Virus record (IMG/VR): IMGVR_UViG_3300049893_001204
Coordinates: 1-64,000 of that record
Direction: 5' to 3' (one strand)
Length of the DNA stretch: 64,000 bases
Source of the DNA: a virus
Below are positions 26,977 through 45,263 of the stretch, piece after piece (the stretch's first letter is position 1; each line of letters opens with the position of its first letter). Both the position numbers and the translations under genes were made by a program. Under the pieces are notes generated by a model that was not told the DNA's origin, did no database searches, and saw nothing but the letters and a program-made list of their open reading frames with translations.

Positions 26977-27004
26977 GCCGGGGATAACACCCCGGCTTTT
27001 TGTT
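26977..27004 (+). terminator. Intrinsic terminator
   Basis: GCCGGGG-ATAACA-CCCCGGC-TTTTTGTT. Confidence 0.8.
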
Positions 27005-27224
27005 GAAAAGTTTGGGTAAGTCTGTATAAAACACTACATAAATAAAGGTTTTTATTTGGGAAGGGGCTCTTATATACCCCAAATAGGGAAAAAATTTATC
27101 TGGCGCTTCTCCCAACACCCACGCGAAGTGAAATGTGGGAAGAAAAAAAGAAAGGGTGGGTGGGTAAGTAAGAGTAACGGGGGCTGCGCATCCGTACCAC
27201 GCAGAGTTCCATCGCGTTCAGACA

Positions 27225-27527
27225 ATGCAATTGACCAAGGAAGAGCAGAAGTCTTATGACTTCGATACTCGCTGCCAGATGGTGGCAAGTTACCTGCATG
27301 AAGGTAAGCCTGTATCCATGACTGCGAAGCAGCTAGCTTACTATGGCGTAACGCCGCACCAGGTTATAGCTGAGCTGGGTGGTTGGCTTCGCTCGGAAGA
27401 GCAAGAAGCCTGCTGGGAAGCTGAGCATTTATACGGCGGCAGCCGCCGCAAGCGAACATATGTTGTGTACTGCACCAAGGTGCAGGACAAGTATGTGTTC
27501 AAGGCTAAGGTAGCTGACTACGCTTGA
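27225..27527 (+). CDS. Early hypothetical protein
   Basis: 100 aa; its TGA begins element C0. Confidence 0.6.
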   Translation: MQLTKEEQKSYDFDTRCQMVASYLHEGKPVSMTAKQLAYYGVTPHQVIAELGGWLRSEEQEACWEAEHLYGGSRRKRTYVVYCTKVQDKYVFKAKVADYA

Positions 27528-27572
27528 AGGTTACCTCTACCCCTGGGCAACCAGGGGTTTATGTAGCCCTCA
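27525..27572 (+). repeat. Structured element family C, copy 0
   Basis: TGA-A-GGTTAC...CCCCTGG-GCAA-CCAGGGG...GTAGCC-C-TCA. Confidence 0.65.
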
Positions 27573-27696
27573 CCCGCGTTTATTCCCCCATTTCTGATAC
27601 GAATTCGTATCGCGCGCGATGGGTTTGGGTGTAAGGATGGTCTTCTGGAAGAAGACAGTCTATGCATTAGGTGCCAGATATTTTATCATAGGTACA

Positions 27697-27721
27697 TGTC
27701 AAGCTGGACGTTAAACGTAGC
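27697..27721 (+). repeat. Pseudoknot family B, degenerate copy
   Basis: TGTC-AAGCTG-GACG-TTAAAC-G-TAGC. Confidence 0.45.
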
Positions 27722-27746
27722 AGACAACTTGGCGGTCGTTCACGAT

Positions 27747-27780
27747 CTTGGCAGCTGCAATTCCGCAGTGTAAGTCCAAG
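27747..27780 (+). repeat. Structured element family A, copy 1
   Basis: CTTGG-CAG-CTGC-AATTCC-GCAG-TGTAAGT-CCAAG. Confidence 0.75.
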
Positions 27781-27797
27781 CTCACCAGGAGAACATT

Positions 27798-27995
27798 GTG
27801 GACTACACCGTTAACATCATCGAGCTTGACAACAACTACTTCCTTCAGGAAGTTTTTGCTGTCACTGAGTTCCAGTACGTGGAACAGGTGACTGCAGGGC
27901 CGTTTCAGGCTCGATGGCAAGCAGACGTGCAACGTTCTGTTGCTTACCCCGCTTATCGGGGATTAACAGATGAGCATTGCCGTCTGCAACACTGA
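27798..27995 (+). CDS. Early hypothetical protein
   Basis: AGGAG SD and GTG start; its TGA begins element D1. Confidence 0.55.
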   Translation: MDYTVNIIELDNNYFLQEVFAVTEFQYVEQVTAGPFQARWQADVQRSVAYPAYRGLTDEHCRLQH

Positions 27996-28069
27996 GCTGT
28001 AGTACTGCACATCTGTGCAGGGCCAGGTGCAACTCCTGGCCTCAGTTATTGCCTCCAGCGGAGATAGGC
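27991..28069 (+). repeat. tRNA-like element family D, copy 1
   Basis: ACTGA...CTGCAC-ATCT-GTGCAG-GGCCAGG-TGCAACT-CCTGGCC-TCAGT-TATT-GCCT..AGGC. Confidence 0.7.
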
Positions 28070-28092
28070 ACCGCACACACACGGAGAAACCC

Positions 28093-28338
28093 GTGAGCAA
28101 CCGCGACCAGCACCACCTTGCTCCGCTCAACGGAGACGGCAACCTCCCAACCAGGGAAGAAGCCGGCGAGTACGTCTTTAACCAGTGCAAGCACTGGATG
28201 GAAGAAGGTCACTCGCAGGTGTTAACCCGCGACCAAGGTCTTCAGATTGCCTGCTGGGCATTGAAGATCGCAGGAGCTCAAGAGCTTCTGACACACGTTA
28301 TTGCAGAGCTTGTTGAGCTTCCCGATAACTACTGCTGA
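28093..28338 (+). CDS. Early hypothetical protein
   Basis: GGAG SD and GTG at 28093. Confidence 0.55.
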   Translation: MSNRDQHHLAPLNGDGNLPTREEAGEYVFNQCKHWMEEGHSQVLTRDQGLQIACWALKIAGAQELLTHVIAELVELPDNYC

Positions 28339-28403
28339 TCCGTAACCAAGCGGGTGGGCAGGTGCAAACCCTGCCCCAGTTATTGCCACCCACTGAGGGT
28401 GGC
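28334..28403 (+). repeat. tRNA-like element family D, copy 2
   Basis: GCTG-A-TCCGT-AACCAA-GCGGG-T-GGGCAGG-TGCAAAC-CCTGCCC-CAGT-TATT-GCCACCC-ACTGA-GGGTGGC. Confidence 0.7.
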
Positions 28404-28416
28404 CTAGCTCAAGTCA

Positions 28417-28626
28417 ATGTCCATGATCAAGAACTGTTTCGTTGTTGTCTTCAACGGCAACGTTGTTGGTATGCATGCAACTGAGGAGGCAGCTGCTCAG
28501 CAAGTATTACAGTTAGCTGAGGAGTGGCAACTTCATGCCGACTGCGGAGCCGAAGTGCCAAAACCAGTATTGGTTGCAATGTCTTTCAATGAATGGATGC
28601 AGCACGAAAGTGTTGTTGTATTCTGA
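28417..28626 (+). CDS. Early hypothetical protein
   Basis: 69 aa. Confidence 0.55.
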   Translation: MSMIKNCFVVVFNGNVVGMHATEEAAAQQVLQLAEEWQLHADCGAEVPKPVLVAMSFNEWMQHESVVVF

Positions 28627-28681
28627 TTTCTGCATCAAGCCCTGAGTAATCAGGGTTTCTTGCAGGACTCAACATCCTGTA
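28624..28681 (+). repeat. Structured element family C, copy 1
   Basis: TGA-T-TTCTGCA-TCAA-GCCCTGA-GTAA-TCAGGGT-TTCT-TGCAGGA-C-TCA-ACA-TCCTGTA. Confidence 0.85.
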
Positions 28682-28702
28682 TCCCACACCTCAAGTCAGT
28701 TC

Positions 28703-28888
28703 ATGACTGCACTCAACATTCGTAAGAACATTGGCGGTCTGCTCCATGCTACTGCATCAGCAGTGGAGCAGATCAAGGTACCTACCAAGCAGCAGCTTAA
28801 TGAGAAGGTAGATGAGTACCGCATTCGTGCGGCTGCACTCATCATGCCTAATGATGCTGCATTTGTTATTCCTGGAGCTAAGAAGTGA
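28703..28888 (+). CDS. Early hypothetical protein
   Basis: 61 aa. Confidence 0.55.
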   Translation: MTALNIRKNIGGLLHATASAVEQIKVPTKQQLNEKVDEYRIRAAALIMPNDAAFVIPGAKK

Positions 28889-29091
28889 AGAACGATTTTA
28901 CTGGAGCAGTAGTTGCCATTGCTATTGGCAACGGACTAGGCTTTCTTCTGTCCATTGCTGGACAGAAGATGATCAACAAGCATCAGATAGCTGTATGTCC
29001 GAGCAAACCTAATCATTCACTTGTGATGGTTAGGAGTGTAGTTGGTGACAGCTACTACTGCATTGCTGATAAGTACTTAGACAAGCACTGA
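28885..29091 (+). CDS. Early small membrane protein
   Basis: N-terminal hydrophobic helix, GTGA coupling. Confidence 0.55.
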   Translation: MKNDFTGAVVAIAIGNGLGFLLSIAGQKMINKHQIAVCPSKPNHSLVMVRSVVGDSYYCIADKYLDKH

Positions 29092-29146
29092 CGTTTGCAC
29101 ATTCCCTTGTGGTAACACAAGGGTTTCTGCAGACCTCACGTCTGCA
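29089..29146 (+). repeat. Structured element family C, copy 2
   Basis: TGA-C-GTTTGCA-CATT-CCCTTGTG-GTAA-CACAAGGG-TTTC-TGCAGAC-C-TCA-C-GTCTGCA. Confidence 0.85.
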
Positions 29147-29173
29147 CCAATTCAACTCAACCCAACTAGGACT

Positions 29174-29425
29174 ATGTCTCCTGCAAGTGTTGAATATCTG
29201 TTGACCCAAGATGCCAGGTTGCTGGCACGCAGGGATTCAACGCCTGCCCATCCTGCTATCGATGCAGAGATTGAGGACTGCCGTCAGGCAGCACTTGATC
29301 TTTACTTCAAGTGGCAAGATGGGACAGCACAGTTCCAGGAACTTACACCCTTTGTGGTGATCTTGGAGCGCAAGGTTGAATTAAACCGTGCACTCATCAA
29401 GTGGTTGAAGAACCACGAGGATTGA
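29174..29425 (+). CDS. Early hypothetical protein
   Basis: 83 aa. Confidence 0.6.
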   Translation: MSPASVEYLLTQDARLLARRDSTPAHPAIDAEIEDCRQAALDLYFKWQDGTAQFQELTPFVVILERKVELNRALIKWLKNHED

Positions 29426-29491
29426 TTCCTGTACTTAACCCTACCTATTCCATGTGATAGGTGGGTTTTCTACAGGACTTAACATCCTGTA
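29423..29491 (+). repeat. Structured element family C, copy 3
   Basis: TGA-T-TCCTGTA-CTTA-ACCCTACCTAT..ATAGGTGGGT-TTTC-TACAGGA-C-TTA-ACA-TCCTGTA. Confidence 0.85.
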
Positions 29492-29517
29492 CACCACAGC
29501 ACAACTCAGCACTAAAC

Positions 29518-29916
29518 ATGACTGAAGCCATCAAGAAGTATGCAGACTTCCAGCAAGTCGTCTTTCACGGACGCATTGCATACATGGAAGCTGTCAACTA
29601 TGACGGCAAAGAATTTCTTGCTGTTACGTTGATGCACACGTTGTCTGAGACAACGGATCTACGGATTCGTTTTACGAATGGCAACGGTCTTTTAACTGCC
29701 TACCGCAACGGTAATCTTGTGGTTGGTCAGGAGCTTACCATCAGTGGTAACATCAAGGGCATCCGTGCTTTCTACATGAAAGAGGATGAGCTTGTGCCAC
29801 TGAAGCATCCTGAGCTACAGGTCCGTTGCATGGGTTATGTCTTTGGTTCCAAGCCAGAGCAGAAACCTGAGGCAGTAGCAACAGCTGTGCCAACGCTGGA
29901 AGAAATTCCATTCTGA
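29518..29916 (+). CDS. SSB-like OB-fold protein with an EEIPF tail
   Basis: VVFHGRI...LVVGQELTISGNI...LEEIPF. Confidence 0.6.
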   Translation: MTEAIKKYADFQQVVFHGRIAYMEAVNYDGKEFLAVTLMHTLSETTDLRIRFTNGNGLLTAYRNGNLVVGQELTISGNIKGIRAFYMKEDELVPLKHPELQVRCMGYVFGSKPEQKPEAVATAVPTLEEIPF

Positions 29917-29980
29917 TTTCTGCACTAAACCCTGCCCATCGTTAGATGGGTGGGTTTTCTGCAGGACTCAACATCCTGCA
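29914..29980 (+). repeat. Structured element family C, copy 4
   Basis: TGA-T-TTCTGCA-CTAA-ACCCTGCCCATC-GTTA-GATGGGTGGGT-TTTC-TGCAGGA-C-TCA-ACA-TCCTGCA. Confidence 0.85.
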
Positions 29981-30005
29981 AACAGTCTACCCAACATCTC
30001 AACAC

Positions 30006-30269
30006 ATGCGATTATCAATTGATCAACATGATATCGACGAAGCTTGTGCTGAGTTCGGTATTTCTCAAAGCGACTATTACATAACGTGCACATCCAGTGC
30101 AATATATATGCACTGGGTAGCAACACCAGAGCAAATCAAGAAGTATTTTGAAACTGGACATTGTTGTTTATGCATAGATATAGGAGGTGAATGGATAATA
30201 TCTGATGAGGTAGAAGATTACAGAATGCCTAATCGTTTAACTGCATGCCGTTACATTCTTGATGCTTGA
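30006..30269 (+). CDS. Early hypothetical protein
   Basis: ATG after an A/C-rich leader. Confidence 0.55.
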   Translation: MRLSIDQHDIDEACAEFGISQSDYYITCTSSAIYMHWVATPEQIKKYFETGHCCLCIDIGGEWIISDEVEDYRMPNRLTACRYILDA

Positions 30270-30270
30270 T

Positions 30271-30471
30271 ATGAAACACATAGTTTCACTAGGCAACAAC
30301 CGCTATGTACACCTCGATTCTTATGGTGAGTCTTCTAAGACTCGAGCCGTAAGTCAGGTGATGGTTGTTGCCTTTGCACTTGTCATTGCCTGCATTACAG
30401 TGCCTGCACTGGTAGGCATTGACATTACCAACATCAACTCAACACAGAACCATGACAACATTAAGCGTTAA
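30271..30471 (+). CDS. Small membrane protein
   Basis: One TM segment. Confidence 0.5.
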   Translation: MKHIVSLGNNRYVHLDSYGESSKTRAVSQVMVVAFALVIACITVPALVGIDITNINSTQNHDNIKR

Positions 30472-30802
30472 CACTGCACTAATTGAAGAACGTCTGCAGC
30501 AGCTTATTACTGCACTCATCAAACAGTTTGATGAATACAGCAGACGAAACTATGGACATCCAAGTGATACTCATTACTTGTCCTTTGAGATTGTCAAAGG
30601 TACCAAGTATTACAAGCTCATTATGAGGCAAGGTACTGGTACATCGGTGCATGCATTTATCAGTCGTCAGACTGGTGCCATGTACAAACCAGCTAGCTGG
30701 AAAGCACCTGCCAAGCACGTCCGGTACAATCTGCTGGATGACACATCATTTGCTGAGTGTCTACGCAGAGCTGACTGGGCTGGTGGGTATCTATACCTAT
30801 GA
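30452..30802 (+). CDS. Conserved cyanophage hypothetical protein
   Basis: GTKYYKL...SVHAFI...TGAMYKPASWKAPAKHVRYNL. Confidence 0.7.
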   Translation: MTTLSVNTALIEERLQQLITALIKQFDEYSRRNYGHPSDTHYLSFEIVKGTKYYKLIMRQGTGTSVHAFISRQTGAMYKPASWKAPAKHVRYNLLDDTSFAECLRRADWAGGYLYL

Positions 30803-30851
30803 GCTTTATCAGTATTCCAGGTAACTAACGTTTACCAGGAATCCAACTAAC

Positions 30852-30891
30852 TGCTGGGCATCCATGGATATACATGGTGTAAGTCCCAGCA
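30852..30891 (+). repeat. Structured element family A, copy 2
   Basis: TGCTGGG-CAT-CCATG-GATATA-CATGG-TGTAAGT-CCCAGCA. Confidence 0.85.
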
Positions 30892-30907
30892 AATCACAAC
30901 TCCTCCT

Positions 30908-31285
30908 ATGAAGGGACGCATTTCAATCCTCAAAGAAGATCGCATCTGGCAGCTGAGAACACAAGGTTATTGCTATGACACAATCGCACAGATTGTCAAT
31001 TGCAAACCTGGTTCAGTTCCAGCTGCACTTAAACGTACAAGACAACGTCCACCACTGGCACAAGATCCAGTAAAACGTGGACGTGTACGTGGCTTTCTAT
31101 CTGATGATCAGATCTCTGACATCAGAAAACGCAAAGCACTAGGTGAAACATTACATTCCATTGCAGGTGACTATCACATTGAGATATCATCTGTGTGGAA
31201 TATTGTAACCTACAACTCTTACAAGGAACCATCAGGTGATTCTGGTTACCCATTCAAGTTTGGTAACCGCCTGATGCATGGTTAA
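30908..31285 (+). CDS. Tandem HTH DNA-binding protein
   Basis: LRTQGYCYDTIAQIVNC and LSDDQISDIR...GETLHSIAGDYHI. Confidence 0.6.
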   Translation: MKGRISILKEDRIWQLRTQGYCYDTIAQIVNCKPGSVPAALKRTRQRPPLAQDPVKRGRVRGFLSDDQISDIRKRKALGETLHSIAGDYHIEISSVWNIVTYNSYKEPSGDSGYPFKFGNRLMHG

Positions 31286-31286
31286 T

Positions 31287-31318
31287 ACCTGGGCATCCTT
31301 ATGGTGTAAGTCCCAGGT
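31287..31318 (+). repeat. Structured element family A, copy 3
   Basis: ACCTGGG-CAT-CC-TTAT-GG-TGTAAGT-CCCAGGT. Confidence 0.85.
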
Positions 31319-31346
31319 TGTTTACAACTCACACAAGTTTACTGCA

Positions 31347-31478
31347 ATGGACTCAAATCAATTTGAAAATGACATTCCTTCTGATGCATTAGATGCATTA
31401 GCTGATCTTGCCTATGAGCAAGAAGAAGCAATGAGGGAAGAACTTAACCAACCGGAGGTTTATGATGACCAAACATGA
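31347..31478 (+). CDS. Small acidic protein
   Basis: MDSNQFEND... Confidence 0.5.
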   Translation: MDSNQFENDIPSDALDALADLAYEQEEAMREELNQPEVYDDQT

Positions 31479-31565
31479 CTACACCTTTGAGCAGGCATGG
31501 GATGATGGCGACATCATCATCATTCTGCTCACAATCATTTCACTTATCATCACGGAAATTGGATC

Positions 31566-31913
31566 ATGTCTAGTGCCAAGCACTCAACAGCAACAGCACG
31601 TAAGTGGATTGCTGTCTACAACACATTCAAAGAGTGTGTTGGCAGAGAACCAACCACCATCTGTGTCTACGAATGCAGCACTGCATATGGAGGACCACAA
31701 GAAGGAGGTTGGTACTACGAAACCGGCTGGCCGCTCAAGACGATCTGCGTCTTCTCCAAAAAGCAAGCCATCCGTGAAGCCATCCGAGCGGAAGCGGAAA
31801 CCGAAGAGCAACTTGGTAATCGCAAAGACTATCTCGGATGGAACGCCTGGTGTGTTAACTTCGACGTTGAGTACGCCAAGCCGTACCCAGAAGAACGTCC
31901 TTACTATTGCTGA
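31566..31913 (+). CDS. Conserved phage hypothetical protein
   Basis: YGGPQEGGWYY...YPEERPYYC. Confidence 0.65.
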   Translation: MSSAKHSTATARKWIAVYNTFKECVGREPTTICVYECSTAYGGPQEGGWYYETGWPLKTICVFSKKQAIREAIRAEAETEEQLGNRKDYLGWNAWCVNFDVEYAKPYPEERPYYC

Positions 31914-31918
31914 TACCA

Positions 31919-32152
31919 ATGCAAACAATTGGACAGAATCTCACAATCAACCAGCGTAATCTATATCTGTATTACTTGAATCATAAGAAGAAGAACAAGA
32001 ATGCCGTATGCTTTGTTCCAAAGATGCCAATGCAATCAACCCGCATGCAAGACTACTTGCGTGCGATAGAAGCTTTAGAAGAGAAGAAGCTTATAGCTGT
32101 GGACAGAAGCTCAGATAATTACACTGGCTGGATCATTCGAGATCCAAAATAA
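31919..32152 (+). CDS. Putative winged-helix protein
   Basis: LTINQRNLY...AIEALEEKKLIAV. Confidence 0.45.
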   Translation: MQTIGQNLTINQRNLYLYYLNHKKKNKNAVCFVPKMPMQSTRMQDYLRAIEALEEKKLIAVDRSSDNYTGWIIRDPK

Positions 32153-32220
32153 TTACCAGGTAATGCCAGATAGATACTGGCCTACCTGCTACACAACCCA
32201 CTGCTATTTAACACAACACC

Positions 32221-32502
32221 ATGGCATTATCCCTTGAGCAACAACTGATTGGTGATCTGATGGGATACCAGCCCATGACACCAGAAGAAGCTGCAAAACC
32301 AGCGGACACATCACTGTGCAACCGTAAGGTTGAGATGCGTGATGGCTGGCCTCACATCATGTGGCGTAAGGAATGGACTCCAGTTCCAACGATGGAAGAG
32401 TTGGAGGAATGGACGTTTGATTCCGTATGTTTGACACCAGATGAAGATGAGGTGGAACCAGATGATGTACACTCGTGGCTTAGTATTCTTGGTTTAATCT
32501 AA
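32221..32502 (+). CDS. Hypothetical protein
   Basis: DSVCLTPD..VEPD..SWLSILGLI, a pattern seen in phage proteins. Confidence 0.6.
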   Translation: MALSLEQQLIGDLMGYQPMTPEEAAKPADTSLCNRKVEMRDGWPHIMWRKEWTPVPTMEELEEWTFDSVCLTPDEDEVEPDDVHSWLSILGLI

Positions 32503-32882
32503 TGCCTTATAAAGATCCGGACAAAAAGCGTGAGTATGATCGCATACGTCGTCAAACTCACAAAGACCAGATCGCCGGTAATAAACGTAAATGGTCAAAT
32601 GAAAATCGTGACAAGGTACGTTTAAGAAGTCAACGGCGACGAAAAGAGGATCCAGATTATTTTAAAAGATATCATGCAAATCAAGACCCTATTAAACGCA
32701 AAGCTAGGCACATGATTACAAATCGTGTGCGATCTGGCAAAATGCCAAGTTGTTCAGTATTTACTTGTGCAGATTGCAACAAGAAAGCTGAACATTACCA
32801 TCATGAATCGTATGAACAATGGTGGGCTGTTGTTGCTTTGTGTCAAGAGTGTCATTACCGTAGACACCAAAAACCAATTTGA
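32502..32882 (+). CDS. HNH-like endonuclease
   Basis: CADC...HYHH..Y...LCQECH. Confidence 0.7.
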   Translation: MPYKDPDKKREYDRIRRQTHKDQIAGNKRKWSNENRDKVRLRSQRRRKEDPDYFKRYHANQDPIKRKARHMITNRVRSGKMPSCSVFTCADCNKKAEHYHHESYEQWWAVVALCQECHYRRHQKPI

Positions 32883-32949
32883 TATTAGCAACAACTACGT
32901 GAGCCAGATCATCCGCATAGCTGGCTGCGTATACTGGGCATGATCTAAC

Positions 32950-33000
32950 ACTTAGGCATTCACATTATCACACTAGTGTTATGTGATGTAAGTCCTAAGT
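32950..33000 (+). repeat. Structured element family A, copy 4
   Basis: ACTTAGG-CAT-TCACAT...ATGTGA-TGTAAGT-CCTAAGT, compensatory changes in both stems. Confidence 0.85.
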
Positions 33001-33027
33001 ACACAGCTAACACAACACAACAACACC

Positions 33028-33384
33028 ATGGGACGTAGCAAGAAATCTGATGGGCCCTCACCAGATTATCCCCAAGGTCTACACAATGTCACATTTAAAG
33101 ACATTAGCGAAGATGATTGGTGGTTAATCATTCATCTGTTTGAAGGACGCATTGAATACTTTCAACGGAGGTTGAATGACATCATGCAGACTGGAGACCC
33201 TGACTTGATGGATAACACAACTCAGTGGTACAGAGAATCAATTGCACGTCTGACCAAGAGACTAACTGAGTTTGAAGATCAGATTAGTCCTGTTTACTTC
33301 AGACGTAAACGTGCAGAGAAAGCTGCGCGATGCAAGCAGTACAACCTACCTATTGACAAGAACGATCTAACAACTAGAACTTGA
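33028..33384 (+). CDS. Early hypothetical protein
   Basis: 118 aa. Confidence 0.6.
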   Translation: MGRSKKSDGPSPDYPQGLHNVTFKDISEDDWWLIIHLFEGRIEYFQRRLNDIMQTGDPDLMDNTTQWYRESIARLTKRLTEFEDQISPVYFRRKRAEKAARCKQYNLPIDKNDLTTRT

Positions 33385-33388
33385 TAAG

Positions 33389-33418
33389 CCTGGGCATCCG
33401 TAAGGTGTAAGTCCCAGG
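33389..33418 (+). repeat. Structured element family A, copy 5
   Basis: CCTGGG-CAT-CC-GTAA-GG-TGTAAGT-CCCAGG. Confidence 0.85.
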
Positions 33419-33449
33419 GTTTACAATCTATTCACAACATAACAACACC

Positions 33450-33776
33450 ATGCCGCAAGATCAACTGCATTTTGAACCAGAGGTATTCCGTTCTTATAAC
33501 GGTAATGAGGTTGTGCTTCAGATGAATGAAGCCAAACGCATTGACCTAATCATCAAAGAACTGCAGGCTATCTATGCAAGAGAGGAGAAACGTAATCACA
33601 TGTACCTGCATTTTCCATATGAAGCACCAGAGCTTTTGTTGGAAGCCATTGAGCTGCTTGAGAAAGCAACTGAGTGGGGTGAACCATCAGATGGTTATCT
33701 GACAGGTGAACCACCACTGACTGCAGATGAAATGCACACAGCAGCATGGAAGCAGCACCAGGAGTTGCACTCATAA
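33450..33776 (+). CDS. Early hypothetical protein
   Basis: 108 aa. Confidence 0.6.
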   Translation: MPQDQLHFEPEVFRSYNGNEVVLQMNEAKRIDLIIKELQAIYAREEKRNHMYLHFPYEAPELLLEAIELLEKATEWGEPSDGYLTGEPPLTADEMHTAAWKQHQELHS

Positions 33777-33955
33777 GTTGAGTAGTATTACTCACAGCAT
33801 GAGTAGAGGGTGTACCCCCAGACCCCCAGAGGGTACCAGGGGGGCACCCTTATTTCTATAAGGTAAACCTATGTATCTAACCATTACACATTAGATACAA
33901 CCCTTGACTACCCTGATAGACTACCCTCGTTCACTCATCTAACTTCACTTCACTT

Positions 33956-34159
33956 ATGTCTGATCAATTACGTATTCCTGATTCAATAGATAACCAACGA
34001 CTTGCTGCTATGCGTTTAGTTGCTCACCTTAAAGAGCAAGCAGATAAGTCAGGTGTTGGATTCATTGGGGGCTTTATTGCCCCCAATGGAGAAAAGTTTG
34101 TCATGTCCAATATGGATGATGAGGACATGCAGATGTTACTTCCTGATGAACTTCAGTGA
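33956..34159 (+). CDS. Hypothetical protein
   Basis: 67 aa, TAGACT upstream. Confidence 0.6.
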   Translation: MSDQLRIPDSIDNQRLAAMRLVAHLKEQADKSGVGFIGGFIAPNGEKFVMSNMDDEDMQMLLPDELQ

Positions 34160-34464
34160 CAACCATGACAACTACACACAAACTTATTGAACAAGTCATC
34201 AGCTCTTTCGAATTTGAAAAAGTGTTAATCACTATGCAAGCATTGGATTGGAAATGGAGAGATCCAAATACTAAAGAGATGCATGTACCTACTATTGCTC
34301 GCATGAAAGCAATGGCAACAAACCTGTTGTTCTCATCGATAGAAAACACATGCTGTGGCTCTGGTGGTTTTGAAGCTACATACACAGAACCAACAGAGCA
34401 TGAGCCAGAGTCATTTGAACTCAAGTTTATTGTTACCGAAATGAACACAAATTCCAATGCCTAA
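34156..34464 (+). CDS. Hypothetical protein
   Basis: FEFEKV..TM.ALDWKW...GSGGFEA. Confidence 0.6.
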   Translation: MTTMTTTHKLIEQVISSFEFEKVLITMQALDWKWRDPNTKEMHVPTIARMKAMATNLLFSSIENTCCGSGGFEATYTEPTEHEPESFELKFIVTEMNTNSNA

Positions 34465-34654
34465 GAAATCATCAATCAATTTCGACAAGACAATCCTGGG
34501 ATTTAACATTACAGAACATGGTGTTAAGTCTTATACCAAGTCGATCAAGCTTGGTCCATTCCAGGTAACATTGAATGCACGTGACTCAGGTGTACGTGCG
34601 TCAGTAGCATTGCCTGGTACAGGATTGTCTAAACGAAACATTAAATTATTCTAA
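34457..34654 (+). CDS. DUF4236-like protein
   Basis: KSIKLGPFQVTLN...SVALPGTGLS. Confidence 0.55.
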   Translation: MPKKSSINFDKTILGFNITEHGVKSYTKSIKLGPFQVTLNARDSGVRASVALPGTGLSKRNIKLF

Positions 34655-34690
34655 AGATCTGGGCATCCTTACGGTGTAAGTCCCAGGTCT
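34655..34690 (+). repeat. Structured element family A, copy 6
   Basis: AGATCTGGG-CAT-CC-TTAC-GG-TGTAAGT-CCCAGGTCT. Confidence 0.85.
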
Positions 34691-34712
34691 GTTCACCTAC
34701 CAATTCAATTCC

Positions 34713-34898
34713 ATGGATCAAATCACTTTGTTTGACAGAGTTAATCTTGCTAACTGCGCAATGCGCAGGGCAGAGGAGCATCTCTCAGATGCTGAACGCT
34801 TTACTGCGGAGTTTCAGACGGTACGTGCTTGGACTAAATACCGTTGCAACATCTACAAGTACGACAATCGTATTGTTGCTTACACGGAGTCAAACTGA
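34713..34898 (+). CDS. Hypothetical protein
   Basis: 61 aa, TGATG coupling. Confidence 0.55.
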   Translation: MDQITLFDRVNLANCAMRRAEEHLSDAERFTAEFQTVRAWTKYRCNIYKYDNRIVAYTESN

Positions 34899-35161
34899 TG
34901 GCATGCACTGTCCTTGCAATTGAAGAGACTACGATCAATGGATCTGATGTCACAGTTACAGCAATGGTTGAAGACATGCGTCTTCTATACCGTGCAACAT
35001 ATACAGATCCTGAGGAATGGGCTCCTGCATTATGCAGAGCTTCTTTCCAGCTGGCTGATGACGAACAGATTCCTACTGATGAAGATGGCTTCTGCCATTT
35101 CTTGTATCAGTTGGATCTTGAATGGCAACTGGTTGACACATCTGATTGGAGTTTAGACTAA
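34898..35161 (+). CDS. Acidic hypothetical protein
   Basis: ATYTDPEEWAPALC. Confidence 0.6.
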   Translation: MACTVLAIEETTINGSDVTVTAMVEDMRLLYRATYTDPEEWAPALCRASFQLADDEQIPTDEDGFCHFLYQLDLEWQLVDTSDWSLD

Positions 35162-35379
35162 TGCTTGGCTTTTCAATAGAATTCAAACGCTGGTACATTG
35201 TACTGCGTGGCCCCAGGGGTAGGGTTTACCTTGCCACTGGGTTTGCTAAGCAGTTGCCATTTTATGTATCACCAACACAAGCTGCAGCATTCGATGCTGC
35301 AGTAGATGATACACATTGTGCAATACTTGCAGATGAATGGCGTGAAGACGATAATGAAGATGAAGAAATAGAGAACTGA
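35161..35379 (+). CDS. Hypothetical protein
   Basis: TAATG coupling. Confidence 0.55.
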   Translation: MLGFSIEFKRWYIVLRGPRGRVYLATGFAKQLPFYVSPTQAAAFDAAVDDTHCAILADEWREDDNEDEEIEN

Positions 35380-35383
35380 TCAC

Positions 35384-35414
35384 ACGTCCTAGGTCATGAC
35401 GTTAAACTGACCTA
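35384..35414 (+). repeat. Pseudoknot family B, copy 1
   Basis: ACGTC-C-TAGGTCA-T-GACGT-TAAAC-TGACCTA. Confidence 0.85.
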
Positions 35415-35440
35415 CACTACAAACTCAATCCACACCAACC

Positions 35441-37189
35441 ATGCAATTCCGTCTGCCTGACAATCTGCAAACTGAGCTGCTTGCTTATGACCCAAGCCTT
35501 AAGACATTGGCTAAGCAACAGAAAGCTGCTGCTTCAGCAACTAAGAAGACAACACATCCACTTGGTAACCCATATGATTTAATCCCAGTGGATATTGTAT
35601 CTAAAGATACACTTGCTACTGCAATTGAACGTATTAATCGCATGGCTGCTAAGTTTCGTTATTATGTGTTTAATAGGTTTGAAACAATTGATAACCAACC
35701 TATACAGATTACTTATGCCATTATCTATTACTACGCACAATGTTGGTATGCAGCATGGCTTCCACCTGCTGACCAACGTGATAAGTATGTATATGGTTAT
35801 CGATATGCATTCAAGAATACTGAGGCTGCACGCAAAGCTATGTCGCATGCAGTAAAAGGTAAGATAGATCAACATCAAGAAATTAAGTATGGTCGCTCAA
35901 CCTTTTACATTTATGGTGAGACGGTTACCTTAGAGCAGATCAAGACAACACCATCAAACGAACTGCAATACGGATGGAACCTAGCTGGTGTGCCAACGTA
36001 TTACCAAAAGTCTGGTGAGATGCGACGCGCTTGTATCAATGAATTCTACAAGTCATTGTCATTGTTTATACCTACGTGGCAAGATAGCCGTGAAATCTTT
36101 GAGCGTGTTCGTAATCAACATTGCATTGCATCATTGTTGATTAGTTATTCAGACCTTAACATTTCCTATTGGGATACAGTTGACAAGAATACTTGGGTAC
36201 CATCACATGAATCATTGCTTAACTTGATTGACTACAATGTAATCTATGCAGAAAACCTGGGTTATAGCAGAGGCTATGAGTATAAAAGATTACACAAGAT
36301 CAAGCACATTATTAATACACCATTCTTTAAGAAATGGATAGAAGAACAATGTGCATTAGTTATGACGCGTATTAACGATAGTTCAATTACAGATTCAAAG
36401 CTAGTTGCTGCGCCATGGAAAACAATCATTGCTTTGTTGACTGCAATATATGGCATTCATAGTGTATGGGATGACTGTCCTATTGATTACTATCAATCAC
36501 ATATGTCTGCATTGATTGCTAGTGGTAATTGTTTTTCATACGCAAGTAACCTAGTTCAGAAGTGGTTGAAAGATAACATGCCTGTTGCATCATTCTTTAA
36601 GATAGTTGAGAAGTCATACGTTAAAGAATTAGCAGGCAATATGTATTTTGATAGAGATATTCAACATCACACGTATCGTTTGCATGAATGGCGTGACACT
36701 ATGAACATGCTAACTAATATACTTAACAAGCAAGATACATTTGATCCGCCTAGCCGCTGGCGTATTGAAGAGTTCCATGACCATGTGCAATCAACTGCAT
36801 GGAAACTAAACAATGAGAACCAATCATTACCACAAGATTTGTTTCCAACACCAATTAAGATTTCACTTGGTGAATCAACATGGACATTCTTCCAGCCCAT
36901 TGATACACATCAACTTGCAGCTTGGGGCCAGGCCGTACGTAACTGCGTTGGCTCTGCATCAGGCTATGCAGAAGGTGTACGCAAGAAGAAACATTTCATT
37001 GTACTGTGCATGATTGATAACAAGCCTGTGTTTACCATCCAGCTAGATGTCAACAATGGCGTCATGAATGTTAATCAAATTAAGGGGGTATCCAACACAT
37101 CACTTAAACCTGAACAACAAGAATTGTATACAACTGCATTCAGTCAGGCATTGAAAGCCAGGGATGCTGAGCTAGCATCTAAGAGCTGA
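35441..37189 (+). CDS. PcfJ-like domain protein
   Basis: C-terminal EFHD...L..WGQAVRNCVG...Y...FTIQL...QIKG. Confidence 0.7.
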   Translation: MQFRLPDNLQTELLAYDPSLKTLAKQQKAAASATKKTTHPLGNPYDLIPVDIVSKDTLATAIERINRMAAKFRYYVFNRFETIDNQPIQITYAIIYYYAQCWYAAWLPPADQRDKYVYGYRYAFKNTEAARKAMSHAVKGKIDQHQEIKYGRSTFYIYGETVTLEQIKTTPSNELQYGWNLAGVPTYYQKSGEMRRACINEFYKSLSLFIPTWQDSREIFERVRNQHCIASLLISYSDLNISYWDTVDKNTWVPSHESLLNLIDYNVIYAENLGYSRGYEYKRLHKIKHIINTPFFKKWIEEQCALVMTRINDSSITDSKLVAAPWKTIIALLTAIYGIHSVWDDCPIDYYQSHMSALIASGNCFSYASNLVQKWLKDNMPVASFFKIVEKSYVKELAGNMYFDRDIQHHTYRLHEWRDTMNMLTNILNKQDTFDPPSRWRIEEFHDHVQSTAWKLNNENQSLPQDLFPTPIKISLGESTWTFFQPIDTHQLAAWGQAVRNCVGSASGYAEGVRKKKHFIVLCMIDNKPVFTIQLDVNNGVMNVNQIKGVSNTSLKPEQQELYTTAFSQALKARDAELASKS

Positions 37190-37237
37190 AGCCACAGCAA
37201 GGCCATCGTATGCTTGGCATAGGTGGCCTTTTCTTTC

Positions 37238-37477
37238 ATGCCTGACTACACTGATGAACAGCTGCTTGCCATGGCAATGGCAAACATTGGTGAATACATT
37301 CATGATCACTCACCACACTATGTACTGATTGAAGATCCTCGTAATGAGGATGACTATGATACATGGGATTATGGTACTGAGCCATTACCTCATGATCACA
37401 CTTGGCATTCAACTGCAATCACAGTTGATGTAAGTCCAAGTGATGCCGGCGTAGCCCAATCGGAAGAAGGCAAGTGA
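37238..37477 (+). CDS. Small acidic hypothetical protein (3' end overlaps tRNA-Leu)
   Basis: MPDYTDEQLLAMAM... Confidence 0.5.
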   Translation: MPDYTDEQLLAMAMANIGEYIHDHSPHYVLIEDPRNEDDYDTWDYGTEPLPHDHTWHSTAITVDVSPSDAGVAQSEEGK

Positions 37478-37519
37478 CTTAAAATCACTCAAGTACGAGT
37501 TCGAATCTCGTCGCCGGCA
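37445..37519 (+). tRNA. tRNA-Leu(UAA), short variable loop
   Basis: GCCGGCG/CGCCGGC acceptor, AGTGA-CTTAAAA-TCACT anticodon arm, ACGAG-TTCGAAT-CTCGT T arm, A73. Confidence 0.9.
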
Positions 37520-37531
37520 GTCTTTCTTTTT

Positions 37532-38038
37532 ATGTTTATGAGCCAAGCTAAAGCTGCTTTAATACAAGCTTATGAAAAAGGTTATCGAGTTAAAGATAAC
37601 GTTGTTTATGGGATTGTTAAAAAGCAACCATTAAAACTCAGTTGCTCTAAGTCTGGCTATCTATTTTTTAATGTAAAGTTTGGTTCAAAAACAGTTAAAG
37701 TATTTCTGCATCGTTTAGTTGCATATGAAAAGTATCAAGACAAATTGCTTGAGCCGGGTATCTTGGTTCGACATTTAAACGGCAATAGCAAAGATAATTC
37801 ATTTGGAAATATTTGCATTGGAACTCAAACTGAAAACATGTTAGATAGAAGTCCGGAAGAACGTTTGAATCATGCTATTAAGGCATCTAGTTCTATACGT
37901 AAATTTACAAATGAGAAAGTAAATCAAATTAAACTTGACCATTCAAATGGTTTAGGTTATAAAGCTTTAATGGAAAAGTATGGCATTACTTCTAAAGGAA
38001 CCTTGCATTATATTCTTACTCATGAATATGTAACGTAA
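37532..38038 (+). CDS. HNH homing endonuclease
   Basis: SGY...VFLHRLVAY...VRHLNGNSKDN..N...GT..EN; AT-rich, next to a tRNA. Confidence 0.85.
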   Translation: MFMSQAKAALIQAYEKGYRVKDNVVYGIVKKQPLKLSCSKSGYLFFNVKFGSKTVKVFLHRLVAYEKYQDKLLEPGILVRHLNGNSKDNSFGNICIGTQTENMLDRSPEERLNHAIKASSSIRKFTNEKVNQIKLDHSNGLGYKALMEKYGITSKGTLHYILTHEYVT

Positions 38039-38041
38039 ACA

Positions 38042-38069
38042 CTGGGCATCCTTATGGTGTAAGTCCCAG
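38042..38069 (+). repeat. Structured element family A, copy 7
   Basis: CTGGG-CAT-CC-TTAT-GG-TGTAAGT-CCCAG. Confidence 0.85.
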
Positions 38070-38098
38070 CCACCAACCCACACAGCAACTTCAACATC

Positions 38099-38461
38099 AT
38101 GTCAATTTTTGCTTGCTTTAAGTACATCATTCCTGAGTTCCATGCCTTCAGTGATGAAGACAAGCGCTACAACGTAGGTGCGACATGGACTGCACAAGAT
38201 GGACTTAAGGATTACCACAACATTGAGTTGCGGTACGTCCACAACTCAGAACGTCTTGCGCTCCAAGGTGATCCACAACCTGATGGCAGCTGGCGTTATG
38301 TAGAACCCAATGGCAATGTCCATACCATCTCAGCTGATCGAGCTAAACACTTTATGGAGCAGACACAGTTGCATGCCACCATCATGGTTGAGATGCTAGA
38401 CAAGCTTAAGGAATCTGGTACAGGGCAGCCGCCCATTGACACTAGTGTCCAGCCTGCTTAA
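38099..38461 (+). CDS. Hypothetical protein
   Basis: 120 aa. Confidence 0.6.
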   Translation: MSIFACFKYIIPEFHAFSDEDKRYNVGATWTAQDGLKDYHNIELRYVHNSERLALQGDPQPDGSWRYVEPNGNVHTISADRAKHFMEQTQLHATIMVEMLDKLKESGTGQPPIDTSVQPA

Positions 38462-38482
38462 GCTACACTTGAACTGCTGACA

Positions 38483-38514
38483 GATCCCCGGCGCAAGCTG
38501 GGGTCTTTTCTTTT
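38483..38514 (+). terminator. Intrinsic terminator
   Basis: CCCCGGC-GCAA-GCTGGGG-TCTTTTCTTTT. Confidence 0.75.
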
Positions 38515-38579
38515 GATGGACACATTGCTAATCATTTTTATTATCTGTGGTATTTCATTTATTGTTGTTTCTGTAGTTT

Positions 38580-38930
38580 ATGACTGACCCAAACGAAGAA
38601 ACTCATCAAGGAGTTAGACCAATGACTGACATCACCCCACCGCCGGAGCTACTGGATAAGTGGGACAACTTACCAATAAGTACCCAGGAAATCTTTGTAA
38701 TTGCCGTCCAATGGGGCGCCAACCAGGAATTGGAGGCGTGCTGTGAGTGGCTTGACGATTACCTCTTGGCTCCTAAGTCAACTCAGCTTCGCGCCGCCCG
38801 CCGCCCCAAGCCACCGAGCTTGAAGGAGCAAAGCCTTGCCCTGATTGATCTCATCCAAGGCAACAAGAAATCCTGGGACCTCAGAGACTTGGATGTTGTC
38901 CGCCACGCACTGGAGCAACTCGATGCCTGA
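38580..38930 (+). CDS. Cyanophage hypothetical protein
   Basis: ITPPPEL...ELEACCEWL...LRAARRPKPPSLKEQ. Confidence 0.6.
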   Translation: MTDPNEETHQGVRPMTDITPPPELLDKWDNLPISTQEIFVIAVQWGANQELEACCEWLDDYLLAPKSTQLRAARRPKPPSLKEQSLALIDLIQGNKKSWDLRDLDVVRHALEQLDA

Positions 38931-39195
38931 CCTCTCCCCCGCCGCGCAAGCAGTGTTGGATGCCTTTGAGCGGGCTCGTGATGCCGCGCTTGATGAGGAC
39001 GACATGCTTGGTCTTGCCGCCGCCCTTATTGCGCTAGCGGATCAGGTGGTGCCGCACCAGTCAGATCCACCCAGTGGCGATGGTGAACCATGGCCTCGCG
39101 GCTACGCACTTCTTAGCGACGGATGGTGGGAACAGCGCCAAATGACACGCGCCGAGATCCTCGCCATTGCCGCCGAGCTGGAGGGTGAGCAATGA
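38923..39195 (+). CDS. Cyanophage hypothetical protein
   Basis: LSPAAQAVLDA...ALADQVVP...ILAIAAELEG. Confidence 0.6.
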   Translation: MPDLSPAAQAVLDAFERARDAALDEDDMLGLAAALIALADQVVPHQSDPPSGDGEPWPRGYALLSDGWWEQRQMTRAEILAIAAELEGEQ

Positions 39196-40141: not shown

Positions 40142-40833
40142 TCATGAATGTCAAGTTGATCTGGGTAACCCCCAACGCAGAGGAGCTAATTACTTATATG
40201 GCACGTGTCAGTGCCCCAAAAAATCAGGAGAATATGGAGACTGCTCCTAAGTTGTTGCGTTATTTAATTCAACATAAGCATTGGTCTCCTTATGAGATGG
40301 CTAACATGTGTGTTGAAATTAACACAACCCGTGCAATATCTGCACAGATTATTAGACATCGCTCATTTAGTTTCCAGGAGTTTAGTGCTCGCTATGCAGA
40401 TGTCAGTGAACTAGGTTCTGCTGTCATCCCACACTTGCGTAGACAAGATCATAAGAACAGACAAAATAGTATTGATGATTTAGATACAGAGATGGTTGGT
40501 AGTTATTACCGACGTATCAGTCAACTTTTTGAGGATGCTGAACATCTCTATCGTGAGATGATAAGCACTGGTGTTGCTAAAGAGTGCGCCAGGAACATTC
40601 TGCCAATGGCAGCTCAGACTAGAATCTATATGCAAGGATCCTTGCGGTCATGGATCCATTACTTACAGCTACGTTGTGACAACGGAACTCAAGCAGAACA
40701 CCGACAAATTGCAGAAGAAATCAAACGAATCTTCTGTCAACAATTCCCAGTCACTGGAGAAGTTGCCTTCTCAGGAGAAGACAACACAACGCAACCACCT
40801 GAGGAACAACGCATTAGTCGTTTGTTTTTCTAA
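40138..40833 (+). CDS. thyX: Flavin-dependent thymidylate synthase
   Basis: HWSPYE, RHRSFSFQEFSARY, GVAKECARNILP, LRSW...Q.EHR. Confidence 0.95.
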   Translation: MIMNVKLIWVTPNAEELITYMARVSAPKNQENMETAPKLLRYLIQHKHWSPYEMANMCVEINTTRAISAQIIRHRSFSFQEFSARYADVSELGSAVIPHLRRQDHKNRQNSIDDLDTEMVGSYYRRISQLFEDAEHLYREMISTGVAKECARNILPMAAQTRIYMQGSLRSWIHYLQLRCDNGTQAEHRQIAEEIKRIFCQQFPVTGEVAFSGEDNTTQPPEEQRISRLFF

Positions 40834-40958: not shown

Positions 40959-40985
40959 ACGTCCTAAGCATGACGTTAAACTGCT
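40959..40985 (+). repeat. Pseudoknot family B, copy 2
   Basis: ACGTC-CTA-AGCA-T-GACGT-TAAAC-TGCT. Confidence 0.8.
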
Positions 40986-41008
40986 CCACACCAACTCACT
41001 ACAACATC

Positions 41009-44025: not shown

Positions 44026-44052
44026 CGTCCCAGGTATGACGTTAAACTGCCT
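44026..44052 (+). repeat. Pseudoknot family B, copy 3
   Basis: CGTC-CC-AGGTA-T-GACG-TTAAAC-TGCCT. Confidence 0.8.
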
Positions 44053-44073
44053 TAACACCTTGCATCTGTACTC

Positions 44074-45214: not shown

Positions 45215-45242
45215 CGTCCTGGGATGACGTTAAACTCATCCA
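45215..45242 (+). repeat. Pseudoknot family B, copy 4
   Basis: CGTC-C-TGGGA-T-GACG-TTAAAC-TCATCCA, second stem bulged. Confidence 0.7.
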
Positions 45243-45263
45243 CTAACCCACTCGGAACTGACC

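Follow-up and report, generated by a model that had tools for sequence, protein, structure and literature searches.

A covarying internal-loop hairpin between early genes of an S-EIV1-like cyanophage, found also in other phages: a candidate intercistronic RNA element

INTRODUCTION

Repeated, conserved internal-loop hairpins between the cistrons of a polycistronic phage transcript are known from T7, with its early RNase III sites (R0.3 to R1.3), and from the early mRNA of SP82; after the cut, the hairpin shields the 3′ end of the upstream message. Integron attC sites, the substrates of the IntI tyrosine recombinase, combine R and L boxes with extrahelical bases. The promoters of the giant virion RNA polymerase of phage N4 are short, strand-specific hairpins with conserved bases before early genes; they form in the template strand, with a 5- to 7-bp stem and a fixed, purine-centered 3-nt loop. 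PeSL (promoter-early stem-loop) repeats of T4-type phages, described by Arbiol et al. in 2010, are reportedly regulatory cassettes that border small early genes and accompany gene gain and loss in hyperplastic regions. Coremin (xrRNA-C) of plant RNA viruses is a two-hairpin RNA that resists the exonuclease Xrn1 (PMC6546385) and also stalls scanning ribosomes (PMC10520033); a first hairpin with a YGAD (or YGNNAD) loop is followed by a conserved spacer, GUUAAACUAC, and a second hairpin (PMC6546385, PMC10520033), and the published motif is GUCCGAAGACGUUAAACUAC (PMC10520033). Here we describe a hairpin, family A, from the early genes of IMG/VR virus record IMGVR_UViG_3300049893_001204. The window analyzed, positions 1 to 64,000 of that record, is the first 64 kb of a 77,678-bp, 98%-complete genome of an S-EIV1-like phage. 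Each copy reads P1-CA(T/G)-P2-loop-P2′-TGTAAGT-P1′, that is, two helices separated by an asymmetric internal loop. A tentative reading, to which we give a probability of roughly 0.4, is that family A acts in cis, in the sense RNA, as an intercistronic end-cap or roadblock of long early transcripts.

In its logic, family A resembles known intercistronic processing and stability signals, but it differs from each of these systems. RNase III signals require about two helical turns (∼20 bp of near-continuous duplex), whereas P1 of family A has 5 to 6 bp, P2 can be 1 to 2 bp, and the conserved part is the asymmetric 2x6 loop; the RNase III-type (T7) duplex is thus absent. The N4-type template-strand hairpin is likewise not seen. 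Like PeSL, family A is repeated at the borders of small early genes where genes have been gained and lost; unlike PeSL, which pairs a terminator-like stem-loop with a sigma-70 early promoter, it lacks promoter hexamers, and its internal loop is conserved. None of the defining sequences of coremin occurs in family A, which has no YGAD-loop hairpin, no GUUAAACUAC spacer, and no evident pseudoknot, and the setting here is a double-stranded DNA (dsDNA) genome and bacterial hosts with RNase J, not Xrn1. The likeness to coremin lies in a second element, family B, which shares slots with family A and bears the coremin core GACGUUAAACU.

RESULTS AND DISCUSSION

Eight family A hairpins in the early block

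A covariance model built from diverse family A copies and run over the whole genome identified eight copies, all on the + strand and spanning positions 27747 to 38069 (Table 1). An earlier note, made from the sequence alone, had reported seven. All seven exist with the architecture described, at starts that had been misplaced by 0 to 4 nt; the copy at 37401-37440 had been overlooked. In these seven, TGTAAGT is indeed invariant, always within a complementary P1 and after CA(T/G), and the compensatory changes in P1 (CTGGG/CCCAG, CTTGG/CCAAG, CTTAGG/CCTAAG) and the variability of P2 were confirmed and extend to relatives. The distance to the next start codon, given previously as 16 to 31 nt, is 17 to 32 nt, and the overlooked copy (copy 7) precedes a tRNA gene instead. 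RNA folding recovers P1 and P2 in all eight copies. When the window was shuffled in 500-nt blocks, 291 of 300 trials contained no such hairpin and none contained more than one, against the eight observed; chance is therefore excluded as the explanation. The heptamer TGTAAGT alone occurs 22 times, compared with 10 expected.

TABLE 1 Positions of family A, family B, and adjoining features in the window (MFE, minimum free energy; z, z-score)
Feature	Position	Strand	Sequence or form	Upstream	Downstream	Remarks
Copy 1	27747..27780	+	CTTGG-CAG-CTGC-aattc-GCAG-TGTAAGT-CCAAG		GTG start 17 nt on (27798); AGGAG in leader	First element of early block; MFE -10.2 kcal/mol, z -2.25; orthologous copy in L005 at 745
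Copy 2	30854..30889	+	CTGGG-CAT-CCATG-gatata-CATGG-TGTAAGT-CCCAG		ATG at 30908, 18 nt on	Gene behind it accessory, endonuclease-like, missing in relatives
Copy 3	31289..31316	+	Minimal 28-nt form, CTGGG-CAT-CC-ttat-GG-TGTAAGT-CCCAG	Begins 3 nt past TAA	Ends 30 nt ahead of ATG 31347	Orthologue in S-EIV1, 41439-41475(-)
Copy 4	32951..32999	+	6-bp P1, CTTAGG/CCTAAG; long P2, TCACAT...ATGTGA		Ends 28 nt ahead of ATG 33028 (accessory gene missing in relatives)	z -2.72
Copy 5	33390..33417	+	CTGGG-CAT-CC-gtaa-GG-TGTAAGT-CCCAG	Begins 5 nt past TGA	Ends 32 nt ahead of ATG 33450	Orthologous site in S-EIV1, 40729-40784(-)
Copy 6	34659..34686	+	CTGGG-CAT-CC-ttac-GG-TGTAAGT-CCCAG	Begins 4 nt past TAA	Ends 26 nt ahead of ATG 34713	Site most widely conserved among relatives
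Leader	34687..34712	+	Example of G-poor leader without Shine-Dalgarno	After copy 6
Copy 7	37401..37440	+	CTTGGCAT-TCAACTG-caatca-CAGTTGA-TGTAAGT-CCAAG (P1-CAT is CTTGG-CAT)			z -3.04; hairpin and tRNA arranged alike at 17 other loci
tRNA-Leu(UAA)	37444..37520	+		3 nt after copy 7		Rfam tRNA, 64.8 bits
Copy 8	38042..38069	+	Identical to copy 3	Begins 3 nt past TAA of accessory HNH gene (37532-38038)	Ends 29 nt ahead of ATG 38099
Family B, site 1	35384-35423
Family B, site 2	40959-40998
Family B, site 3	44026-44065
Family B, site 4	45215-45254
Family B, site 5	48517-48556

Covariation and the internal loop

Relatives of the hairpin were gathered in three ways, namely, through the PcfJ-like protein, DNA patterns, and whole-record model searches. 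Across 121 distinct model-aligned sequences, P1 is 99.7% paired. Double changes number 17 at the third P1 pair, which alternates among G-C, A-U, and U-A, and 21 at the first P2 pair, which alternates between C-G and U-A; in 500 shuffles, this level of covariation was never attained. Although one copy's P2 sequence bears no relation to another's, P2 is almost always paired. Its length ranges from 1 bp to >9 bp, with loops of up to ∼20 nt, and inner stem plus loop take up 6 to >45 nt; 35 of 73 distinct exact-pattern sequences (defined below) have a P2 of 0 to 2 bp, and the minimal forms measure 26 to 28 nt. These results support the proposal of a structured, strand-specific, covarying element, for which a covariance-model search had been suggested as a check.

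The same alignment delimits the loop. Invariant positions are G4, G5, C6, U3′, A4′, A5′, G6′, and the next two C's; position A7 is an A in 116 of the 121 sequences, and R2′ is G in 111 and A in 10. The last base of CAU and the first base of UGUAAGU covary, with U.U in 113 sequences, G.U in 3, G-C in 2, and U-A in 1, and one further contig, L140, has A-U there. Because these two bases change together and position 2 varies between G and A, the predicted unpaired internal loop is 5′-CA opposite 5′-RUAAGY, and the flanking U...U behaves as a pair. A T-loop, to which UGUAAGU had been likened, is a five-base U-G/U-N-R-A turn in which base 1 forms a reverse Hoogsteen pair with base 5 and is not otherwise paired. 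That likeness fails, since the first U, which would have to pair with the fifth base, here pairs across the loop, and the second base can be G or A. The 11-nt GAAA tetraloop receptor (CCUAAG...UAUGG) offers a lead only: as in family A, UAAG lies opposite (Y)AU next to C-G pairs, a likeness that may point to an A-A platform, but in family A UAAG is preceded by two additional bases (N1′, R2′) and followed by one (Y), G-C takes the place of G.U, and a partner GAAA loop is not conserved. The helices contain 17 G.U and 4 A.C wobbles, an excess that favors a sense-strand fold, most simply RNA, over a template-strand DNA hairpin, with the caveat that the model itself prefers G.U.

A widespread family confined to phages

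Searched against Rfam 15 at gathering thresholds, the whole window yielded only three tRNAs and an abiF RNA, with family A unmatched, and a permissive scan of 30840-31330 returned chance-level matches only (expect values of 5 to 8), in agreement with the initial impression that the element is not a known riboswitch or ribozyme. A full-text literature search for the heptamer retrieved unrelated papers only. Among isolate phages, region 27000-39000 had no megablast match and a 32-nt copy 3 query had no blastn match; the sole isolate matching in a protein search is Synechococcus phage S-EIV1, whose counterpart of a 783-amino-acid (aa) structural protein is 81% identical.

Aquatic phage contigs from metagenomes contain many more copies. 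An exact 20-base pattern, CTGGGCAT N4-34 TGTAAGTCCCAG, was found in at least 118 contigs, with at least 95 instances and at least 73 distinct sequences among the matches listed, and 69 of 80 metagenome loci encode S-EIV1-like proteins. A first viral scan with GGCATN{6,36}TGTAAGTCC was discarded as too loose: most of its matches were due to chance, and 8 of 80 loci passed the covariance model. Conversely, one genome each of ∼185,000 bacterial and archaeal species gave seven exact-pattern matches, none credibly cellular; six have no P2 and look random, and the remaining one comes from an S-EIV1-like fragment that had been binned into a metagenome-assembled genome. Nor did the covariance model pick up a credible copy in any of 151 genomes from the cyanobacterial phylum.

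S-EIV1 and five near-complete IMG/VR genomes carry 2 to 4 copies each, and two contigs (L151 and L165) carry 8 to 10 within 7 to 14 kb. Family A also occurs, usually once, in phages with no detectable protein in common with this phage and with GC contents of 37 to 62%. In a GC-rich group (G001, L029, L170, and L187), it stands at the same place, after a phrog_4652 gene; in an S-CBWM1-like group (G002, L191, L206, and L223), it lies 51 nt upstream of the major head gene; and contigs G003 and G004 are further carriers of this kind. Comparison of G000 to G004 and L029 by tblastn and blastp revealed no protein common to all carrier phages, although G001, L029, and G003 are related to each other. 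Judged by these searches, family A is a new, widespread, phage-specific family of predicted RNAs, and none of the families tested includes it. S-CBWM1 itself has no copy, whereas its relatives do, so gain or loss of the element is possible where the intergenic site is otherwise conserved. At that site, the S-CBWM1-like contigs (G002 [L129, 1449-1500], L191, L206, and L223) show a second covarying mini-hairpin after family A, GGTTGCAACC or GTGTGCACAC, followed by a conserved AUUUGAAGACAA box and then GGAG before the major head gene; a similar box (CCATTTTTGAACAA) is retained in S-CBWM1.

Fixed positions relative to stop codons, start codons, and a tRNA

Position statistics were drawn from 148 distinct instances (107 stop gaps and 141 ATG gaps). 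Every copy with an identifiable gene context has the orientation of its flanking genes. P1 begins a median of 5 nt after the upstream stop codon; 75 of 107 gaps are 3 to 7 nt, and none is 0 to 2 nt. This coupling, like the spread beyond this genome and the exchange with family B, is not mentioned in the earlier note. The T-A-A found there is a stop codon rather than a -10 box, because T-G-A alternates with it in orthologues. From P1′ to the next ATG, the median is 29 nt (interquartile range [IQR], 26 to 31). Downstream genes can also be tRNAs: of 25 tRNA-Leu(UAA) genes in S-EIV1-like loci, 18 have the hairpin 3 to 6 nt upstream, even where the tRNA sequence differs. For example, contig L003 (11958-12080), whose PcfJ-like protein is 94% identical, has a different tRNA-Leu(UAA) behind the same hairpin, with the heptamer TATAAGT; compared with this genome, the tRNA has evidently been replaced and the hairpin-tRNA spacing kept. 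In this genome, ∼210 nt without a convincing open reading frame (ORF; 37190-37400) separate the PcfJ-like gene from copy 7, and the final 30 nt (…gagccattacctcatgatcaca) are kept in L005 and L140, whereas in L004 and L139 the hairpin comes 4 to 7 nt after the PcfJ-like stop codon.

Outside the S-EIV1-like phages, the downstream context changes. In G003, family A stands 2 nt past a stop codon and 27 nt ahead of a hairpin with a T10 run behind it; in G004, the next 210 nt are noncoding and have no ORF; and the S-CBWM1-like and G001-like copies lie 50 to 63 nt from start codons with their own Shine-Dalgarno sequences. The sole constant among the carrier groups is the upstream stop codon, not the downstream gene. 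Translational control, one of the functions suggested earlier, cannot be the whole story, given the copies 3 to 6 nt before tRNAs and those in 3′ untranslated regions (UTRs) far from starts.

The leaders that follow family A are G poor (2 to 12% G at +3 to +30 in 89 instances) and rich in C, A, and U. They usually lack a Shine-Dalgarno sequence, as do those of copies 2 to 6 and 8 in this genome (for example, 31317-31346 and 38070-38098), copy 1 being the exception. CUCAACUCAA-type words occur in 30 to 33 of 75 leaders, and CA and CU words are common, which suggests S1-type, Shine-Dalgarno-independent initiation. Positions +1 to +5 after P1′ read G(51%)-N-U(50%)-U(51%)-W(69%), resembling the RNase E preference RN↓WUU. 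ACUUAC, the complement of GUAAGU, is present in 7 of 75 leaders compared with 1.6 expected; the enrichment is real but concerns <10% of leaders, and GUAAGU-ACUUAC pairing was dropped as an explanation. Signals of transcription were also sought. An intrinsic terminator is a G+C-rich hairpin that runs directly into a U-tract, but a scan for terminator-like sites listed none of the eight copies, and T reaches at most 51% at any position downstream of family A, with no T run. A sigma-70 promoter combines a -10 hexamer (A at -11, T at -7) with a -35 box at 16 to 18 nt, and no + strand site from the promoter scan coincides with a copy.

Exchange with a coremin-like element and link to accessory genes

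The layout of family B is (A)CGUCC-[7-9 nt loop]-AUGACGUUAAACU-[segment pairing with the loop]. Family B lies 14 to 21 nt ahead of the genes for the PcfJ-like and GP88-like proteins and SSB and of the ORF at 45264; a degenerate copy is present at 27697. It has GUC...GACGUUAAACU in common with coremin. It was not filed as coremin, as its 7- to 9-nt loop starts with C-U or C-C and departs from the YGAD rule. Across relatives, families A and B occupy the same slot before orthologous genes (PcfJ-like, B in 9 and A in 4; GP88-like, B in 4 and A in 10; SSB, 3 each), and the two therefore appear to be functional alternatives.

Four genes of this genome are missing in six relatives: 30908-31285, 32502-32882, 33028-33384, and 37532-38038. 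Three of them are endonuclease-like, namely, 30908-31285 (weak helix-turn-helix [HTH]/HNH), 32502-32882 (phrog_2340), and 37532-38038 (HNH_3). The additional hairpins (copy 2, one of copies 4 and 5, and copy 8) flank exactly these insertions, so the inserted genes arrive with, or acquire, their own copy. The pattern points to homing-endonuclease cassettes of the free-standing type, which would bring the hairpin along or duplicate it. It fits an expression module, and recombination at the repeats becomes likely as well.

A proposed intercistronic end-cap or roadblock

As an end-cap or roadblock, family A would form in the sense RNA directly behind the stop codon of one cistron, and the transcript would be cut just 3′ of the hairpin. 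Where a tRNA follows, RNase P would make the cut; at tRNA-Leu, the upstream RNA would then end in the hairpin plus a 3- to 6-nt tail. Elsewhere, an RNase E-type cut could fall in the G-poor leader, at the G-N-U-U-W of positions +1 to +5. The compact hairpin, with its specially folded CA/RUAAGY loop, would survive as a terminal structure and block 3′→5′ exonucleases entering the upstream cistron, host 5′→3′ RNase J entering the downstream cistron, or both, while the downstream message would keep a ∼25- to 30-nt unstructured leader without a Shine-Dalgarno sequence. We infer that family A acts as RNA, that the cuts lie next to it, and that the block is due to the hairpin alone or with a bound host factor. 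The family of RNase J, the bacterial 5′→3′ exonuclease, was detected in the control genome of Synechococcus elongatus and not in that of E. coli. Most observations are accounted for by an end-cap or roadblock. The G003 and G004 contexts imply that the element needs no downstream gene, and its occurrence in phages without a common protein fits an RNA that is self-sufficient or dependent on a host factor. Family A may well be a site recognized by a nuclease or by a binding factor, as the earlier note had thought.

Several points weigh against an end-cap or roadblock. The minimal form is 26 to 28 nt with short helices, and a plain hairpin this strong is a weak exonuclease barrier; the 28-nt copies reach only -7 to -8 kcal/mol, and the short copies have z-scores of -1.0 to -1.5. 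Exonuclease-resistant RNAs, which as a functional class halt a processive 5′→3′ exonuclease in vitro without protein, depend in the known cases on a pseudoknot or ring; neither is evident in family A, and the ACUUAC partner of GUAAGU is found in just 7 of the 75 leaders. The coremin link concerns family B, not A, and is based on an 11-nt identity, and resistance of coremin is shown in the literature only against eukaryotic Xrn1. The narrow ATG spacing fits a translational operator or a promoter-fixed 5′ UTR equally well. As to the alignments, covariance-model hits lean towards the model's structure and G.U pairs, and the exact pattern that retrieved most of the metagenome copies fixes CAT and TGTAAGT; the outer P1 pairs and the entire P2 were unconstrained in the looser first scan, where pairing was seen too. 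It is doubtful, though conceivable, that families A and coremin-like B are the first exonuclease-resistant or roadblock RNAs of dsDNA bacteriophages, that is, a protein-free 26- to 50-nt fold that stops RNase J, and perhaps trailing ribosomes, at gene boundaries and is exchanged as a portable module among unrelated cyanophages.

Alternatives at the level of translation and transcription initiation

A phage or host RNA-binding protein could instead read the CA/RUAAGY loop and switch translation of the adjacent downstream early cistron on or off; it would nucleate on the hairpin and either cover the leader or leave it exposed, on the model of T4 RegA or the gp32 pseudoknot-plus-leader. The invariant loop bases do suggest sequence-specific recognition, the median ATG spacing puts the hairpin at the edge of the 30S footprint, ahead of leaders that are unstructured, G poor, and without Shine-Dalgarno sequences, and the restriction of family A to the early block of this genome, with a second class (family B) before DNA-metabolism genes, is what class-wise control would produce. 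We nevertheless consider an operator unlikely, since the 18 copies before tRNAs have nothing to translate, no ORF lies close behind those in G003 and G004, the starts behind the S-CBWM1-like and G001-like copies are 50 to 63 nt away and have their own Shine-Dalgarno sequences, no protein was detected in common among the carrier phage groups, and Pfam and PHROG scans of the conserved early proteins found no RNA-binding domain. A hairpin promoter, formed by extruded single-stranded DNA or acting as an RNA-primed signal for an unrecognized phage RNA polymerase or the host polymerase with a phage factor, would start transcription a few bases 3′ of P1′. It would account for the location ahead of genes at a near-constant ATG distance, for the G at +1 in 51% of copies, and for inserted accessory genes that bring their own copy, and the two element classes would match temporal promoter classes. 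The 3- to 4-nt gap between the stem base and the first base of the tRNA also equals the gap between stem base and +1 in N4 (junction at -5/-4; PMC4496689). Against this stand the wobble pairs, which favor the sense strand whereas N4 uses the template strand, and the free length of the inner stem and loop (P2 of 1 to >9 bp, loops to ∼20 nt), which disfavors cruciform extrusion and is unlike the fixed loop of N4. Moreover, no phage RNA polymerase or sigma factor was recognized: neither sigma-70 region 2 nor a DxDGD motif was found in the 98%-complete genome, and PF00940 (T7-like polymerase) is unmatched. PF00940 is equally unmatched in all 14 control genomes and its lack is therefore no sign of absence; a very divergent single-subunit enzyme may still be encoded. 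TGTAAGT/TATAAGT is a poor -10 box, with a mismatch at -11 and/or -7 in every register, and the element occurs in phages without a common protein and in 3′ UTRs directly before a terminator. Promoter activity is accordingly improbable.

Alternatives involving elongation, recombination, and RNA catalysis, and discarded ideas

We regard three further explanations as more improbable. A nascent put- or nut-like hairpin might bind the host polymerase, directly or via a small phage peptide, and allow readthrough of early-region terminators; the element is cis acting and in sense orientation, a conserved host enzyme as the target would work in unrelated phages, and some copies have terminator-like hairpins behind them (29440, 29931, and 38486; 27 nt on in G003). 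To our knowledge, cyanobacteria have no Rho, which would leave intrinsic terminators as the sole barriers. Antitermination is nonetheless a poor match for a density of at least eight copies per 10 kb, given that one or two would be enough, for the lack of a terminator between most copies and the next one, and for the coupling to stop codons and tRNA 5′ ends; put RNAs, moreover, have two stems and about 65 nt, far more than the minimal 26-nt form. There is even less to recommend exchange of gene cassettes at the repeats (PeSL- or attC-like) or targeting of the repeats by neighboring homing endonucleases, which would explain why the extra copies (copy 2, copy 4 or 5, and copy 8) flank genes missing in relatives, three of them endonuclease-like, why copies 3 and 8 are identical, and why phage contigs carry 1 to ∼10 copies and S-CBWM1 none in the intergenic region where its relatives have one. 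An outer stem, unpaired bases, and a variable inner stem also recall attC. However, PHROG and Pfam scans of ∼44 ORFs found no integrase or transposase family (no search was aimed at recombinases), co-orientation, fixed ATG distance, and an invariant loop at orthologous sites whose neighboring protein is only ∼40% identical point to expression, and recombination at repeats can be a by-product of an expression function. Just as slight is the chance of a tiny self-cleaving ribozyme or a ligand-binding internal-loop aptamer. An invariant 2x6 internal loop between helices of free sequence is seen in small aptamers and ribozymes, the occurrence in unrelated phages without a common protein would follow naturally, and several ribozyme classes have an intergenic, phage-rich distribution; but family A has just 26 to 28 nt and ∼8 conserved unpaired bases, and we know of no natural self-cleaving ribozyme as small as that. 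Nor does it have an expression platform, an alternative pairing that reaches the start codon, or a match to any Rfam ribozyme or riboswitch.

Four other ideas were discarded. Mimicry of the S8 site, K-turn, or sarcin-ricin loop does not fit the strand topology; P1 variants without GGG/CCC exclude a mimic of the initiator-tRNA anticodon stem; neighboring ORFs are out of frame, contrary to stop-codon readthrough; and the half-site spacing varies by >25 bp, contrary to a dimeric DNA operator.

Implications

S-EIV1-like phages are a widespread freshwater and marine cyanophage lineage in which the function of most genes is obscure. An element that recurs gene by gene, stands before a tRNA, and swaps with a coremin-like element points to a posttranscriptional organization of early expression, in hosts that have both RNase E and RNase J. 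If family A is a roadblock, one long cyanophage transcript would become separately stabilized messages and a tRNA. An exonuclease block or cleavage mark would extend the exonuclease-resistant RNA idea from eukaryotic RNA viruses to bacteriophages and would also provide a very small insulator or stabilizer part for cyanobacterial synthetic operons. If the element proved to be a promoter or operator instead, the missing control system of this phage group would have been identified. The covariance model and the 121 aligned distinct sequences suffice to define a new RNA family.

Other features of the genome

Genes up to 26655 are on the minus strand and include terminase, structural, and tail-fiber genes. 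The first gene of this block with virion genes, a 976-aa ORF at 23725-26655 (-), is the largest in the window and has no match in Pfam, PHROG, or the ESM Atlas. The + strand block starts at 26739 with many small ORFs, followed by PcfJ-like, GP88-like, DNA polymerase A, SSB, and primase genes; the small early proteins yielded only DUF4236 and weak HTH or endonuclease matches in PHROG and Pfam. Twenty-four public runs contain 28500-38499, all of them DNA metagenomes, with no RNA run among them. The abiF RNA lies at 56999-57035 (-), with 52.2 bits against a gathering score of 37, near tRNA-Thr and tRNA-Pro (56176-56325, minus strand). Finally, two similar terminator-like hairpins on the + strand, at 29440-29475 and 29931-29964, read CCT.CC...GGTGGG and then TTTTCT(A/G)CAG; both directly adjoin the start of the following ORF, and the two are probably members of another early-block repeat family.

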